From positions 1 through 64,000 of the forward strand of contig JBDIWC010000020.1 of assembly GCA_039794085.1 (NCBI GenBank): a stretch of 64,000 bases of DNA, read 5' to 3'. Numbering within the stretch: the first letter of the stretch is position 1; each line of letters begins with the position of its first letter. Positions 27,001 through 48,000 of the stretch are shown here, one piece after another. The position numbers were made by a program. Source of the stretch: Gemmatimonadales bacterium (GTDB lineage Bacteria; Gemmatimonadota; Gemmatimonadetes; Gemmatimonadales; GWC2-71-9).

Positions 27001-30000
27001 GCCGTCGGGTTGGGAGGCGTGTTGCTGACGAGGGGCTGCAACGCTTCGAGGAGGATGATCCCATAGTTCTGTTTGGCGTCATCGTCCCCGAGCCGCTCGA
27101 CCAGCTCCCCGAGGGAGTAGGCATCGTCATAGCGGGCCTCGCGCACCAGGCCCTGGACCGCGAGCAGGACGGGCCGCACGTCGCTCGAATCGAGGGCGAT
27201 GTACCGCCGCGTCGTGGCCACGAGACTGTCGAGGGGCCCGGCGTAACTGTAGGCCTTGACCAGGTAGTCGACGATCTGAGGGTTGTTCGGGTATTTCTGC
27301 GCGCCAAGGCGGGCCCACTTGAGGAGTCGTGTGGTGTCGGGCTGCTGGTCGGCGGCGATCCCGATCTTCAGGAAGAAGGTCGTGTCGGCCTTTTCCCGGT
27401 CGATTTCGTACATCTGCTCCAGGGCGTCGATCGCGCAGGCAAAGTTGCTCTGCGAGAGGCAGGCATTGCTCTTCAGGTCGTACCAGTCGGGGTTGGTCGG
27501 ATCCAGTGCGATGGCTTCGTTGGTGAGGTTCATCGCCTCCTCCGGGCGGCCGTACGCCTGGAAGGCCTTGAACGCCTCATCCCGCAGGGCCTGATTAGTC
27601 GGGGCCACGCGGAGCATCTGCTTCAGGGTTTCAATGGTGGTGTTGGTGTCGTTCCGCGCGACATGCAGTTTGAGGACCTCGTTCCAGGCATCCAGACTGA
27701 GGGAATCCCCTGTCGTGGCTCCCTGGAAATGCGCCAGGGCGGAATCGGTGGCATTCTGCGCCAGGAAGATCTCCCCGAGGCAGAACTCGGCGAGTCCGTG
27801 GTTGGGCTGTTGCTTCAGCGCATCGCGCGCGGCCTTGATCGCCCGGTCGACCTTCTCATACTGATTGTCCCGGCACTCCCGGGCGTCTTCCATCGCCTTG
27901 AAGGCGTCGGCAAGCTGATCGGCGAGGCGGCCGCCGAAATCCTCGAGGCTCTGGTTCTCGCCCTGCGTCAGACTGGCAAGGTATCCCGCCTTGTCGCTGT
28001 ACCCGACCACGCGCACCGAGGCGGTGAACCGGTTGTTGTCGTTCCGGGACATGGTGCCGGTGACCAGCGCCTGGGCCTGCAGGGTCCCGGCCAGAGTGCG
28101 AGCCACGACGGGAGCCAGCACGGCATCCGCCGGGTAGGCGTACTGCATCAACGCCTCGTTCATCTGCTCTCGGGTGATCACCCGGAACCACTTTCCCGCC
28201 ACGTTGTCCATCCGCCTGCGCAGCCCATCGCCGACGCGGACGGCCGCGGTGGAGTCGGAGGCGGAGGAGACGAAGGGAGTCGCCACGAAGAGGCGGGGCA
28301 GATTCTGCACCGGCCGCTGGGGCCGCACCGCACGCAGCTGAGCCATGGCCGGTACCGCCGTACCGAGAGCGACAAGCGAGAGAAGTACCGATCGGGTCAG
28401 ACGCATCGCGCACCTACCTCCAAACGTGAACTGTCGAGGGCCGGCACAGGGCCGGCCAGGTTCCAGTGGGCGAAGAGGGATTCGAACCCCCGACATCCTG
28501 CGTGTAAGGCAGGCGCTCTGGACCGGCTGAGCTATTCGCCCGATCCACCTGCCCCTGTTCAACAGGGAGACGACACGCCCCCCACCCATTTGCACGGAGC
28601 GAACCGGCAATCAGATTGCAATGGCCAGCGGAAACAGGACGACGTACCCGAGAACGAGCAACACGGCCGCCGGACTGGCACTGCCCGATGCGAGCAGGAC
28701 ATACCCCCCCGCCAGCGTTCCCACCGCCACAGCCAGCACAACCCGGTTCCGGATCCCGAACGTGGCCTTCCCTGCAGGGGGTGCATTCTTTTCAGGCATA
28801 AGTCAGTATGCTATTCGCATTGTGGTCTGGGGTCAAGCTCTCGGAGTCGGTGAGGCGACTCCGCCCACCTCGGGGACGTCCCATCCCTGGTCAAGGGCTG
28901 CACGGCGGCGCGAATCGGAGCGTCGGCGAATCGACCGGGCCAGAACCATCCAGAGGATCACGAGCCCCCAGATCCCCCCGGCCGACAGCCAGACGATCAC
29001 GCCGTAGCGGTGCCGCACGTCCTTTCGCCAGGCCTCGTCGAACCGGTCCACGGTCAGGCCTGTGGCGGCCCGGAGTGCGTCGTCAAACGGAACCCGGCGC
29101 TCAAGGGCGCCCAGCAGAGGCTCGAGAGACCCGGTGGGATGCCGACGGGCCAGGCTCATCACGGCGTCGCCGGCCAGAGCGTAGGCCAGGCGGATGGTGG
29201 CCGGATCGTCCCGAAGCGCGGCATCGAGCCCATGCAACGTGGGAACGCGTCCCCGCACCACGGCCAGATTGAGGCGGAGGGCATCGAGACGTCCCCACTC
29301 CCCAGCCGCAACCACCGCGTACCCTTCGGCAAACCAGAGGGGGACCCGTCCGGGGAGTGCCGAGGCCAGGATCAGGTGGGCGAGTTCATGGCGAAGGGTG
29401 GCCTCCGGGTCGCCGGCGTCGAGCCGGAGGATGATCGTGCGGGCGGACGGCAGCGTGAGCCCTGCTCCCCAGGCGGGCCCCCGTCCCCGGGTGATCCGCT
29501 GGAGCGCCGCCACGTCGCGTACCAGGATCAACCGGAAGGGCCCGGGCTCCCGCCGACCAAGCCCGTACCACGCGCGGGTCTGGTCCGCTCGTTCGGCAAG
29601 TGCAATCCCCAACGCGAGGTGCTCGGCAGACGCCTGCACCAGAACGTTGCCCACTTGCACTTCCTCGACCGGAAGCCCGAGGGCCAGCTGCGCCGCCAGA
29701 AGGAGTGTCCACATGTCCTACTCCGCCGGGGGGCCGGGCACCGCACCGCCCGAGGCGATCAGGTCAAGCATCTCCTGGCACCGGGCCGCCCAGGGCGCAT
29801 GCCGGTTGGCGGCGATCCCCGCCTGCCACACCGTTCGCGCCTCGTCGGGTTTGCCCCCGTGCCAGAGGGACCGACCCAGGTCATAGTAGGCTTCGATCAG
29901 ATTGGGCCCCAGGGCCACCGCCTTCCTCAGAAAACCCTCGGCATCACCATGCATTCCCCGTTCAAAGTACACCAGTCCAAGGTAGTAATGAGCATAGAGG

Positions 30001-45000: not shown

Positions 45001-48000
45001 ACCATCGAGGGGAGCGGAGGCCGTGGGGGCCCGCTCCCACTCCAGGAGCAGCGCGTTGCACTGGGCCAAGTGCTCGCGGCTGTCCGCCCGAAAGAGAGCG
45101 ACGTACTTGTCGAGATCCACCCGGCGCCGGTCAGCTGAGGAGGCGCTGAACGGCCTCGAGCACGCGCGAGGGCTGGAACGGCTTGACCACGAAGTCCTTG
45201 GCCCCCGCCTGGATCGCCTCCACCACCAGGGCCTGTTGCCCCATCGCGCTGCACATGAGAATCTTGGCGTCGGGATCGATCTTGACGATTTCCCGCACCG
45301 CGTCGATGCCCCCCATGTCGGGCATGACGATGTCCATGGTTACCATGTTGGGGCGGAGTTCCCGGTAGCGTTCCACAGCCTGGGCCCCGCTCTCGGCCTC
45401 CCCGACCACTTCGTACCCGGCCTGGGTGAGAATGTCGGTGATCATGGTGCGCATGAAGATCGCGTCGTCACATACCAAAACGGTCTGACCCACGTGCTGC
45501 CTCCGTGCGAGGGGATCGTGAGGTGCCCCGGGGGCACCCGATGTCACAAGGCCCGGCCGACACCGTCCGGGGCGAAAAGCGGACCCACCTGGGCCGCGAG
45601 ATCCGGTACCTCCACGCCCGCCACGTCCGCCTGATCCGCATCCCGAAGATCAAGCACTTCGCTCACCGCCACCCCGACCGCACGCCCTTCCAGCTCGAGG
45701 ACCAGAATCGCCGCCGGATCTTCGGCCCGAGCCTCGCCGAAGAGCGTCCGGCCGTCAATCACCGTGATGATCGTCCCCCGGACGTTGACCAGCCCGAGAA
45801 TCTCCGCAGGGGTCCCCGGAATGCGCGTGGCGACACGGGCCTCCAATATCTCCCGCACGCCGGACACCGGGGTACCGAACCGGCGGGATCCCACCCGCCA
45901 TTCCAGGAGGCGCGACCCGGTCACGCCGGAACCTCACCAAAGAATCGAAGGTAGTGGAGCGCCGCGTGGTCGGCAATCCGGACCCGGTTCCCCGCGGCCA
46001 CCCGCAAGGCGGGAAGGAGGTCCGCGGGCCATTCGCTTCGAAGCACCAGCGGCTCGCCGTGGATCGGGTGCCGGAACCGGAGTTCCGCCGCGTGGAGCGC
46101 CTGGCGAGGAGCACTCCGTTCCAGCCTTTCGGCCTCGATTCGGTCCGAGCCGCTCACCCTCCGACTCCCGCCTCCATGATACACCGGATCTCCCACCACA
46201 GGGTGACCGATGTGGGCGAGGTGGACCCGGATCTGGTGTGTCCGCCCCGTCACCAGCACCACCTGGAGCAGGTCCGCCACCCCGAACCGTGCCACGGTCC
46301 GGGCCTCGGTTCGGGCCGGCCGACCCTCGGAATGGACCGCCATGCGCTTGCGGTCGGTGACACTCCGCGCCAGGGGTGCCTCGATGAGGACGGGCTCCCG
46401 GTCCAGATGCCCCCAGGCCAGTGCCGCATAGGTCCGGTGAACCCGGCGCGCCGCGATGGCATGCGCCAGCCGCCGGTGTGCCAGGTCGGTCTTGGCCACG
46501 ACCAGGAGTCCCGAGGTGTCGCGATCGAGCCGGTGGACGATGCCGGGCCTCCCGGCAGGTCCCCCGGAGAGGGTCGTGCCCCGGGCGACCAGGGCGTTGA
46601 CCAGGGTGTCCTCCCAGTGGCCCGGTGCCGGATGGACGACCAGCCCGGCGGGCTTGTCCACCACCGCCAGGTGCTCGTCCTCGTACACGAAGGTGAGAGC
46701 CATGTCACAGGGAGCGAGGGGGCGCATCCCCTCACGGACCGGGGGGCCGGTCGTGACGTGCACCCGATCGCCTCGCTGCAACACGAGCGAGGCCCGGGCG
46801 GGAGAATCGTTGACCCGGGCGGCCCCGGCGGCCACCAGACGGGCGGCCACGGTCCGGGACAGGGCCAGCTGATCGGCAAGAAACCGGTCGAGTCGCTCGG
46901 TCCGGTCGGCGAGCACGGTGAAGGCGAATCCGGGATCGTCGGTCAGCGGGAGGAACCGGGTTCGGCCGAGCGGTATCGGGCATCCTCGGCCCAGAGCGAC
47001 ACGGCCAGGGCGATGGCGCCAAGACTCACTCCGATGTCGGCCACGTTGAACGTGGGCCACCGCAGGGTTCCCACCCCCACGTCGATGAAATCCACCACCC
47101 CCGAGGTGCTCCGGATCCGGTCCACCAGGTTTCCCGCCGCTCCCCCCGCCACCAGGCCCAGCGCCACCTGGCGAAGACGATCGCCGGGAGCGCTGCTCCA
47201 CGCCATCCGGGTGAGGATGACCAGCGCCACAAGGGCAATCCCGAGGAAGATCCACCGGGACCAGGGGCCCAGATGGAGGCCGAACGCGGCCCCGGGATTG
47301 TATACCAGGCGGAACTGGAGGGTGTCCCCCAGCAACGGCAGCACCCGGCCCCGGGGGAATGAGGCCTCGACGGCGAGCTTGGTCACCAGGTCCAGCACCA
47401 GCACCAGCGCGGCCACACCGGCGTAGCGGAGGTTTCTACCGGCGCTTGGCATCTTCCTCCTGCTCCTTGCAGGTGATGCAGAGTCGCGCGTGGGGCAGGG
47501 CGTCCAACCGGTCGAAGCTGATCGCCTCGCCGCACTGCTGGCACTTCCCAAAACTCTCGGGATCATTGTAGAAGCGACGGAGAGCCTGGTTCACGTGCCA
47601 CAGATAGCGTCCCTCCTGCGACGCGAAGAGGAACTGCTTCTCCCGCTCCATGGTATCGGTGCCCTGGTCGGCCATGTGAAACGAGTAGCTCGACAGGTCG
47701 CCATCCGAGCCTTGCAGCGTATTGCTGAAGGATTCCCCATAGTAGCCGAGTTCCTTCATCACGCGGGCGCGTTCGTCGAGCAGTCGCTGGCCGAGGTGCG
47801 CAAGTTGTTTCTTGTTCATGATGATTCCATCGTGGGCGGATCAGGAATGGCGACCGGGTGGGGGCACCGGGTCACCGACAAGTGCACACAGTGATCGTTC
47901 AGGGGCGTCCGGTCCTCGGCCTCCGCCGGGTCAAGCACCGTATTGAAATGTAACTTTCGAACGAGGGCCTCGCGACACACCAGGGCCTGGTGCGTTCGGA

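Follow-up and report, generated by a model that had tools for sequence, protein, structure and literature searches.

Organisation and conservation of the locus

The window analysed here comprises 64,000 nucleotides of contig JBDIWC010000020.1 from a Gemmatimonadales bacterium (GCA_039794085.1). It contains a co-directional string of 16 genes on the minus strand (29718..45924), in which 14 of the 15 junctions measure 11 nt or less and 10 overlap. All genes named in the initial annotation were matched by Pfam at the expected place and on the minus strand. Beginning with cheW, the genes, together with a following peptidase-like gene, are:

45544..45924, minus strand: cheW, short form (126 aa); Pfam CheW, E 1.6e-21
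45131..45493, minus strand: cheY, F1-type, Asp54 present; Pfam and sequence comparison
43252..45120, minus strand: cheA with Hpt (His present), P2, dimerisation, HATPase and one CheW domain; Pfam
42620..43240, minus strand: cheC phosphatase, both ExxN motifs present; Pfam
39915..42623, minus strand: 902-aa all-TPR protein, presumed scaffold; Pfam
38758..39912, minus strand: PATAN1, DUF4388 carrying a half-degenerate MshEN-like insert, followed by TPR; Pfam
37986..38768, minus strand: TPR-roadblock fusion; Pfam
37636..37986, minus strand: stand-alone roadblock protein (116 aa); Pfam
37178..37639, minus strand: MglB-like roadblock with a C-terminal helix, presumed GAP; Pfam
36556..37173, minus strand: MglA-family GTPase; G1, Arg53, Gln82 and G4 intact
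34625..36559, minus strand: tandem DnaA-domain-III ATPase (644 aa); two Bac_DnaA stretches, Pfam
33009..34625, minus strand: PATAN2, DUF4388 containing a complete 53-residue MshEN motif (57-109), followed by a TPR superhelix; NF053729
32197..33009, minus strand: cheR; Pfam
31712..32200, minus strand: cheD, Cys and His present; Pfam
30619..31731, minus strand: cheB, receiver domain and Ser/His/Asp triad, start codon uncertain; Pfam
29718..30626, minus strand: 302-aa helical-TPR protein; Pfam
28833..29714, minus strand: Peptidase MA-like gene, 3 nt downstream of the 302-aa TPR gene; Pfam

The extent first given for the operon described its gene content correctly but not its limits, as the coupled string runs past both ends: rluD overlaps cheW by 4 nt at the upstream end, and the Peptidase MA-like gene, the usual follower of the block in relatives, is a candidate member at the other. 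On the same strand, the block is flanked by divIVA-ileS-rluD on one side and by the rsmH-ftsI division cluster on the other. A promoter and terminator scan of the block remained at chance level.

Using a profile search, we found the DnaA-like ATPase gene in 52 of 61 Gemmatimonadales genomes. Outside the source family, it was present in 13 of 21 second-family genomes and in the one genome of each of three more families. The earlier count of 0 out of 17 genomes outside the source family was thus a threshold effect, the profile recovering the gene in four other families. The locus proved to be a conserved core locus of the order, as had been proposed, with gene order kept in 51 loci: mglA was present in 51, PATAN2 in 50, the 902-aa TPR gene in 49, the MglB-like gene in 48, the 302-aa TPR gene in 47 and cheA in 43 (seven of the eight loci missing cheA are contig ends). 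A scan of 2 of the 64 parts of the collection yielded 80 matches, consisting of 10 full-length loci and ordinary dnaA genes. G041, the only genome of the source family without the ATPase, was also without DUF4388, CheA, MCP and pilM matches (one case).

Chemosensory genes and their receptors

The Che core is of the F1 type, with the gene order of Myxococcus Dif, and is not Frz-like. The 126-aa CheW is no shorter than its family consensus. The five primary specificity residues reported for DifD of M. xanthus are all matched in CheY, and in 21 of 31 Myxococcota genomes a single CheY is 48-61% identical to it. Pfam detected no receiver domain in CheA, and the Hpt His pattern was found in 39 of 43 CheAs. 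Grouping with DifE-type kinases was examined in a CheA tree built without Firmicute or Thermotoga CheAs, where the split from six other CheAs was supported at 0.957; an F1 CheA outgroup was sought in five unrelated genomes and none was found. The CheA of Frz is fused to a receiver domain. We rejected Frz as the nearest Che system on the basis of CheA architecture (no receiver), gene content and the comparison with Myxococcota.

The block shares its cheW-cheY-cheA-cheC order with Dif (DifA, C, D, E and G; MXAN_6696-6692) and with the Geobacter dif-like clusters (PMC2577667, where CheA/Y clusters are discussed). Further features in common with Dif are CheC, CheD and CheR, a CheA without fused receiver, DifD-type CheY residues, a non-flagellar character and long-arm receptors, whose arm length the orphan MCPs share. 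The block differs by having CheB and ten non-Che genes, and by the absence of an in-cluster 44H MCP with a tiny periplasmic domain (0 of 51 loci). Among the 16 Myxococcota loci with dif-like clusters, cheC was seen in eight, and our own profiles detected PATAN, roadblock or DnaA-like genes in none.

MCP genes were absent from the block in all 51 loci, whereas eight MCP matches were found elsewhere in the source genome; "receptor-less" therefore applies to the operon and not to the genome. MCPs occurred in 38 of the 41 carrier genomes, and the receptors of the block are likely to be the orphan long-arm MCPs.

MglA paralogue and roadblock proteins

The GTPase of the block is a paralogue of MglA: the canonical mglA sits on contig C32, as an mglB-mglA pair in G000, and in a quick unrooted tree the canonical MglAs of both Gemmatimonadota and Myxococcota formed one clade that excluded the block protein (SH-aLRT 99). 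Its alignment with M. xanthus MglA was gap-free over G1, the Arg finger, Gln and G4. These motifs were intact in 46 of the 51 loci, and G068 retained Arg53. Identity was 58-61% to canonical Myxococcota MglA versus 43-48% to the dif-adjacent Myxococcota GTPase, of which the block protein may or may not be an orthologue. An mglB-like gene was located within four genes of mglA, the coupling criterion of PMC4316618, in 48 of 51 loci. The MglB-like roadblock scored far under the cut-off of the MglB model NF052242 (E 3e-9). As in MglA/MglB of M. xanthus and Thermus thermophilus, a group 1 GTPase (60% identity to canonical Myxococcota MglA) with intact Arg53 and Gln82 adjoins an MglB-like gene; the differences are that the block MglA is a paralogue, that three roadblocks are present instead of one, and that the Che partner is not Frz-like.

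The initial annotation had drawn a contrast with PMC4316618 that the paper itself does not bear out. The mglA-PATAN neighbourhood is already published there, Gemmatimonas included: the main text places group 1 and 5 mglA genes sometimes near PATAN genes, and Table S2 gives Gemmatimonas aurantiaca GAU_1409 as 'PATAN>MglA>-PATAN>', with the gene between mglA and PATAN unnamed and Che genes not recorded. At MXAN_6703, the same table has an orphan GTPase of group 1 (PMC4316618). Myxococcota also have an mglA paralogue near the dif-like cluster, 2-6 kb upstream of it in 9 of 16 loci, so that linkage of Che genes to mglA is not confined to Gemmatimonadales. We take MXAN_6703 to be SofG.

Tandem DnaA-like ATPase

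The 644-aa ATPase is made up of a first half (residues ~10-226), an acidic mid helix from residue 266, a second half (~381-596) and a putative docking tail (624-644). It had been described as two DnaA-like domains without a DNA-binding domain, in agreement with the two Bac_DnaA stretches and with a Pfam search in which neither DnaA_N nor Bac_DnaA_C was found. The true dnaA, with both of these domains, is on contig C28 in a normal dnaA-dnaN arrangement. Across the family (n = 51), Walker A was present in 51 first and 49 second halves, the arginine finger in 43 and 46, and sensor II in 48 and 39, respectively. The source-genome copy is degenerate in half 1, where the Asp of sensor I is missing along with the arginine finger, and has shortened insertions in both halves.

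A role related to that of DnaA, through co-assembly with DnaA or binding of single-stranded origin DNA, would tie replication initiation or asymmetric division to polarity and chemosensing. The best fold matches were DnaA domain III (TM 0.81-0.82 over the solved domain), the consensus of half 1 has every catalytic motif and ~40% identity to DnaA, and that of half 2 retains the DnaA post-Walker-B motif; the position of the block between divIVA-ileS-rluD and rsmH-ftsI would also fit. The post-Walker-B motif of DnaA has a role in single-strand binding. However, domains I and IV are absent, the two halves form a clade of their own apart from 14 DnaAs (0.99), and the source-genome copy no longer has the insertion helices or the half 2 motif. 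Moreover, the ATPase is dispensable, since both of its ATPase domains have been lost from one clade and the gene is missing in several families. We consider this reading distinctly improbable. Compared with DnaA and Hda, the protein has the same AAA+ domain III fold and motifs, but is duplicated, dispensable and under the cut-offs of both models (101 bits against 194.8 for the Hda model TIGR03420).

A single-domain form occurs in four genomes belonging to a distant class, next to a TPR gene and with no mglA or roadblock genes. The three translated have the same Trp/acidic tail, and the partner consists of the TPR part alone. As a protein query, this form returned about six close full-length relatives.

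PATAN proteins and a c-di-GMP motif

MshEN, a c-di-GMP receptor, consists of two 24-residue RLGxx motifs and a 5-residue spacer (PMC5013675). PATAN2 has exactly this arrangement over 53 residues and scored 43 bits with NF053729 (cut-off 38), and 42 of its 43 homologues matched the MshEN model at E<=1e-6; judging from its sequence, PATAN2 is likely to be a c-di-GMP sensor. PATAN1 remained under the cut-off (33.4 bits), its first Arg being replaced by Pro. As in cyanobacterial PatA-type regulators and described PATAN neighbourhoods, the domain carries a helical insertion and is encoded beside mglA, but here it is fused to TPR in place of the receiver domain of PatA-type regulators, and its insert is a full MshEN. 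As in MshE, PilB and PilF (PMC5013675), a 53-residue tandem c-di-GMP motif is associated with an ATPase; the block differs in that motif and ATPase are on two proteins, with a predicted tail-TPR contact, and that the ATPase belongs to the DnaA clade and is not a secretion ATPase.

The TPR groove of PATAN2 is the predicted docking site of the ATPase tail. Complex prediction with our own alignments gave a score of 0.73, while the best of three controls scored 0.00. Of 157 solved complexes, 116 attained the mark of 0.73, as did 2 of 215 mismatched pairs; contact agreement between runs was at least 64% and partner pLDDT at least 60. Conservation of the predicted interface was 0.70 versus 0.64 for other TPR-region residues, which is not significant (592 of 10000 random sets as high). 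A C-terminal peptide in a TPR groove is a common solved geometry, so the pass may partly reflect likeness. Neither the c-di-GMP motif nor the ATPase-tail/TPR pairing appeared in the initial annotation.

Natural deletions within the block

In five genomes (G034, G045, G050, G070 and G072), the ATPase gene is reduced to ~60-75 codons, encoding the mid helix and tail only, and PATAN2 is missing exactly the 53 residues of the MshEN motif. These genomes form one clade (support 1.0) and thus represent a single event, not five. The insert of PATAN1 is retained in the three that have this protein. Loss of c-di-GMP signalling as the cause of the MshEN loss was not supported, as all four of the five genomes that were searched keep GGDEF matches (4-8 each). 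Against the reading favoured below, MshEN is degenerate in G065, with both Walker sets intact.

Alternatively, the block may bring together separable modules (Che; MglA-roadblock-PATAN1; ATPase-PATAN2) that are co-transcribed and serve a common lifestyle, with no direct contact between Che and MglA. Every module is lost alone in some genome, the distant class has an ATPase-TPR pair without mglA or roadblock genes, and the string is coupled to housekeeping genes too. G070 and G072 have cheWYAC-cheRB but no mglA, roadblocks or PATAN1, and G037 and G042 have lost cheRDB and all MCPs with MglA intact. The proposed link between a Che pathway and an MglAB switch stands as one coupled string; signalling from Che to this MglA would be a further step, and G070 and G072 keep Che without mglA or roadblocks. 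However, five families share one fixed, interleaved arrangement of the modules, a clade of five loci has lost the MglA catalytic motifs together with cheRDB and one CheC motif, and the mini gene persists beside the Che genes after loss of mglA. We regard a mere bundle as quite improbable.

Output of the system

The locus is separate from the flagellar che cluster, as first described; the latter is on contig C5. We rejected a flagellar role, which is contradicted by carriers without flagella: flhA was found in 10 of the 41 carriers, the other 31, all at least 94% complete, having no match. A second flagellar chemotaxis system is hardly conceivable on these grounds, even though the closest CheYs among solved structures were the flagellar ones of Thermotoga and archaea; the flagellar cluster of G000 has its own Che set and shorter receptors. 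The block is likely to steer pili or cell polarity. In G000, a secretin accompanies pilMNO, and there is a pilB/pilT-like ATPase pair. Although pilM was present in all 41 carriers, it was also found in 59 of 61 genomes of the phylum, including families without the operon, so its co-occurrence says little. Synechocystis PATAN domains bind PilB1 and PilC, according to a preprint (bioRxiv 10.1101/2021.06.11.447907).

A Dif-like alternative takes pili as the input and EPS or adhesion as the output, the c-di-GMP/ATPase arm setting a threshold for surface attachment and not pilus polarity. The cheW-cheY-cheA-cheC order, the CheY similarity and the c-di-GMP motif in PATAN2 fit such a role; according to PMC4671073, Dif controls EPS downstream of pili, with DifD as a phosphate sink. 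In addition, four genomes have an extra ATPase gene inside the block, and the two that were scanned give sub-cut-off matches to the XrtA/PEP-CTERM-associated ATPase model. Nevertheless, a DifA-type receptor was found in none of the 51 loci, CheA identity to dif-like CheAs (33-40%) is not above that to other CheAs (35-42%), no EPS genes were seen in the block, and the MglA, roadblock and PATAN parts indicate polarity. This alternative appears unlikely to us.

Proposed mechanism and significance

We give about even odds (roughly 0.5) to a single polar machine, in which the tail-held ATPase, gated by c-di-GMP through PATAN2, would act with the MglA paralogue and the Dif-like Che pathway on the position or switching of type IV pili. 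Orphan long-arm MCPs would drive phosphotransfer from CheA to CheY, with CheC, CheD, CheR and CheB providing reset and adaptation. Binding of c-di-GMP to PATAN2 could tune ATP-dependent oligomerisation of the ATPase, the MshE/PilB arrangement being split over two proteins, and the roadblocks may serve as GAP for the MglA paralogue. Output would reach the PilB/PilC motor through the PATAN domains, a function that such domains have in cyanobacteria; a pilus output of the block is what we infer from these parts. The weakest point of this scheme is how CheY would reach MglA or the ATPase; a candidate CheY site is the acidic mid helix, which is conserved. A bolder proposal, unlikely in our estimate, is that a duplicated initiator motor became a c-di-GMP-gated, ATP-driven polar scaffold, tethered through its tail to a PATAN-TPR adaptor, which would read CheY-P through the mid helix and physically link Che to the Ras-like switch, and possibly to DnaA.

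Even in Myxococcus, with its scattered parts, the route from a Che pathway to a Ras-like polarity switch has been worked out only in part. In Gemmatimonadales, an abundant order that has received little study, the candidate parts are gathered in a single string of constant order, and the natural deletions indicate specific contacts. The ATPase would be a DnaA relative working outside replication, and PATAN2 would be a c-di-GMP receptor whose target ATPase is a separate protein.

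Gene content and genomic setting of the block

The initial annotation had read this region as a receptor-less chemosensory operon enclosing an MglA GTPase, three roadblock proteins, two PATAN proteins and a tandem DnaA-like ATPase, and Pfam searches bore out its gene list. The block and its flanks lie on one strand throughout:

45924 to 29718, minus strand: 16-gene block (Che genes, MglA paralogue, roadblocks, the DUF4388-TPR proteins PATAN1 and PATAN2, tandem DnaA-like ATPase)
45921-52370, same strand: divIVA-pnp-ileS-dksA-lspA-rluD, with mostly overlapping junctions
1-26513, same strand: rsmH-ftsI-mur division cluster

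With gene starts refined, 10 of the 15 junctions overlapped and 14 were of at most 11 nt, with one-base stop-start overlaps at ATPase/PATAN2 and PATAN2/cheR. The string ran on upstream (rluD-lspA-dksA-ileS-pnp-divIVA); downstream it reached a peptidase-like gene, with a gap of 432 nt before the genes leading to rsmH and the division cluster. A role in replication or division, for which these neighbours and the DnaA-like fold could be invoked, seems unlikely. A normal dnaA-dnaN was present in the same genome (94.7% complete), and both ATPase halves, together with single-domain forms, stood apart from 14 DnaAs in a tree (0.99).

The flagellar Che cluster of the source genome lay apart from the block and contained CheZ-like and MCP genes. 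The genome also carried a canonical mglB-mglA pair adjoining recR, pilMNO with a secretin, a pilB/pilT-like pair, and 8 MCP and 8 GGDEF matches. Its only two DUF4388 genes were both inside the block. A fifth roadblock gene, an orphan, adjoined a nucleotidyl transferase gene (L164:6631-7023). Names on homologues were those of Gemmatimonadales.

Distribution and gene order

A 48-row ATPase profile was used to search 90 further genomes from the phylum. It detected an ATPase-bearing form in 38 of the 39 genomes of the window's own family (counting the unpublished G055, and two copies broken by contig ends), in 13 of the 21 genomes of a second family, in the single genome of each of families f3, f4 and f5, and in none of those of f6, f7 and f8 (0/4, 0/6 and 0/11, respectively), giving 52 of 61 genomes for the order. 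Among the eight second-family genomes without the ATPase, five retained the locus with a mini gene, a remnant of the ATPase; no DUF4388 was seen in the other three.

Gene order was mapped in 51 loci (40 fetched, 10 from the collection scan, and the window), all chosen by ATPase presence and mapped with profiles built from those same loci. mglA was present in 51, PATAN2 in 50, an MglB-like gene in 48, cheA in 43 (contig ends account for seven of the misses, and G068 has truly lost the gene) and cheR in 38, and an MCP gene in none. One or two further cheW genes followed cheB in 33 loci; the window had none. Four related genomes had an extra AAA ATPase gene between cheB and two cheW (L115:17289-18158, L116, L117:17264-18184, L126), of the XrtA/PEP-CTERM-associated type, below the model cut-off. 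One locus labelled Acidimicrobiia (L009) showed the full Gemmatimonadales-type gene order, possibly as a mis-binned or mis-titled contig.

The tandem DnaA-like ATPase

The model of the ATPase (pLDDT 86, pTM 0.50) comprised two domain-III folds, with a helical segment and a disordered linker between them, and a short terminal helix; its best fold matches were DnaA domain III. In the first half (motifs named as for DnaA), Walker A and B were present in all 51 copies, sensor II in 48, sensor I Asp in 47 and the arginine finger in 43. The second half never had the sensor I Asp; its Walker A was kept in 49 copies, the arginine finger in 46, Walker B in 45 and sensor II in 39. The copy in the window is an eroded member of the family. 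Every one of the 51 full copies had the acidic mid helix, and 49 had the Trp/acidic tail. Two genomes (G082 and G047; L127, L130) lacked the second ATPase half but retained the first, together with an intact mid helix, tail and MshEN. In two others (G065 and G090; L120, L121), all three roadblocks and cheR were lost, the second half was shortened and two lspA-like genes lay upstream; MshEN was degenerate in G065.

Joint loss of ATPase and MshEN and predicted docking of the tail

In five genomes (G034, G045, G050, G070, G072), the ATPase gene was reduced to a short frame of acidic mid helix and Trp/acidic tail, which kept its place directly before PATAN2, and PATAN2 was short by exactly 53 residues. 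According to PMC5013675, this is the length of the MshEN tandem motif. PATAN2 of the window passed the NCBIfam c-di-GMP model (43 versus a cut-off of 38), which was matched at E ≤ 1e-6 by 42 of 43 homologues (the 42 best-scoring loci and the window); two mini-gene-clade copies tested gave no match to it. Because the five genomes form one clade, a single loss event is indicated. A single-domain DnaA-like form adjoined a TPR gene in four genomes from families f9 and f10; the three that were translated end in a Trp/acidic tail of the same type, and the neighbouring partner was the TPR part without PATAN. Tail and TPR thus stay together in three architectures: full, mini-gene and single-domain. 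The f9/f10 pair lay downstream of dapF (L166:9405-11356, L167:6911-8874, L168, L169:6122-7991); in L167, a receiver-GGDEF, CheR-TPR, cheW, cheW string occurred 3 kb beyond it.

Complex prediction with PATAN2 (538 aa, 43 rows) and ATPase residues 605-644 (47 rows) scored 0.73 (runs 0.73, 0.71, 0.75), versus 0.00 for the best of three controls. Among solved complexes, 116 of 157 attain the score mark used, as do 2 of 215 mismatched pairs; these rates are only rough for self-made alignments. Contacts agreed at least 64% between runs, with partner pLDDT of at least 60. The predicted pose placed tail residues 624-643 along TPR residues 256-491, including the invariant Asn321, Asn460 and Asp463; conservation of the predicted PATAN2 interface was not significantly raised. 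The model supports the proposed binding of the tail to the PATAN2 TPR region.

The MglA paralogue and its coupling to the Che genes

An alignment of the block GTPase with MglA of M. xanthus (E 5e-75) showed that Arg53 and Gln82 are conserved. A quick 38-row tree put the canonical MglAs of the two phyla in one clade (99), and the embedded and dif-adjacent MglAs fell outside it without a settled branching order; eight dif-adjacent Myxococcota paralogues formed their own clade (99). In a clade of five loci sister to the window's lineage (L011, L012, L133, L134, L136), the catalytic motifs of the embedded MglA were lost, along with cheRDB and one CheC motif, and this degenerate MglA is possibly a pseudo-GTPase scaffold. 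Since cheRDB is missing from G037 and G042, whose MglA is intact, and mglA from G070 and G072, whose Che genes are intact, the coupling of Che and MglA is loose. Fully separable modules that share a locus, as these losses might be read, seem unlikely.

Comparison of the Che core with Dif

The best solved matches of CheY were Thermotoga (E 2e-53) and archaeal CheYs, and the best-matching models for CheC and CheD were from Thermotogales, which marks the system as F1-type. A single CheY matching at 48-61% was found in 21 of 31 Myxococcota genomes. Among 16 of these loci fetched, MCP-cheW-cheY-cheA was present in 14, cheC in 8, and in 9 (L178-L182, L184, L186, L192, L193) an mglA-like gene preceded the dif-like MCP by 2-6 kb. 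According to PMC2577667 and PMC4671073, this is the dif arrangement; the literature searched yielded no description of a conserved link between Dif and this upstream GTPase. The window CheY has all 5 primary and 3 of the 7 secondary specificity residues of DifD (as given in PMC4671073), a likeness that may be general to F1. Gemmatimonadales and dif-like CheAs split from six others at 0.957, in a tree without other F1 kinases, and identity to dif-like kinases was no higher than to others. In make-up, the Che system works like Dif, and the evidence points to Dif as the nearest model, rather than Frz. Dif has its receptor in the cluster, whereas the block has none, and so the block is not a member of Dif. 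EPS as the output, a reading that could lean on this likeness, is rather unlikely.

Receptors, flagella and pili

Among 61 chosen genomes surveyed for flhA, pilM and MCP, the 41 ATPase carriers had flhA in 10, pilM in 41 and MCP in 38. pilM was found in 59 of the 61 genomes; therefore, flagella are excluded by the data and pili are not proven. A flagellar role is hardly credible.

In 20 MCPs of flagella-less genomes, picked among the matches listed, the tip-to-end arm was 155 residues in ten; nine lacked the end motif and had tails of 157-161, one was unplaceable, and none had an arm of 134. Dif-like MCPs had an arm of 155 in 12 of 14. In the source genome, four receptors had an arm of 134 (the flagellar cluster holds two of these), two long ones grouped with MCPs of flagella-less carriers, a seventh was missed by the pattern and the eighth match was a fragment. 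These long orphan MCPs are likely the receptors of the block's Che pathway; by comparison with PMC2577667, we infer that they would be of the 44H class. All three carriers without MCPs had lost cheR; four other carriers without cheR and cheB kept two MCPs each.

Proposed mechanism and standing in the literature

We put the mechanism as a whole at a probability of about 0.5. Orphan receptors would signal via CheA to CheY; the ATPase would be held by PATAN2 and gated through c-di-GMP; the MglA paralogue and roadblocks would mark the pole; and the PATAN domains might target the pilus motor, by analogy with Synechocystis, in which, according to bioRxiv 10.1101/2021.06.11.447907, PATAN domains act on it.

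PMC4316618 already describes mglA/mglB near PATAN genes, including a Gemmatimonas aurantiaca row (GAU_1409, Table S2) with a block-like arrangement, and a helical insertion in PATAN is likewise in print. As G065 and G090 have the same roadblock-free order, that row is most likely an orthologous locus. Searches on PATAN/MglA, Gemmatimonad Che/roadblock and MshEN/DUF4388 found no description of the Che wrapping, tandem ATPase or tail-TPR pairing. Part of the cluster may already appear in class surveys of Che systems or in the neighbourhood figures of Makarova et al. 2006. The block is a real and conserved system, apparently undescribed, of known kinds of parts and one new protein family, to which this analysis adds the joint loss of ATPase and MshEN and the predicted docking of the tail on PATAN2.
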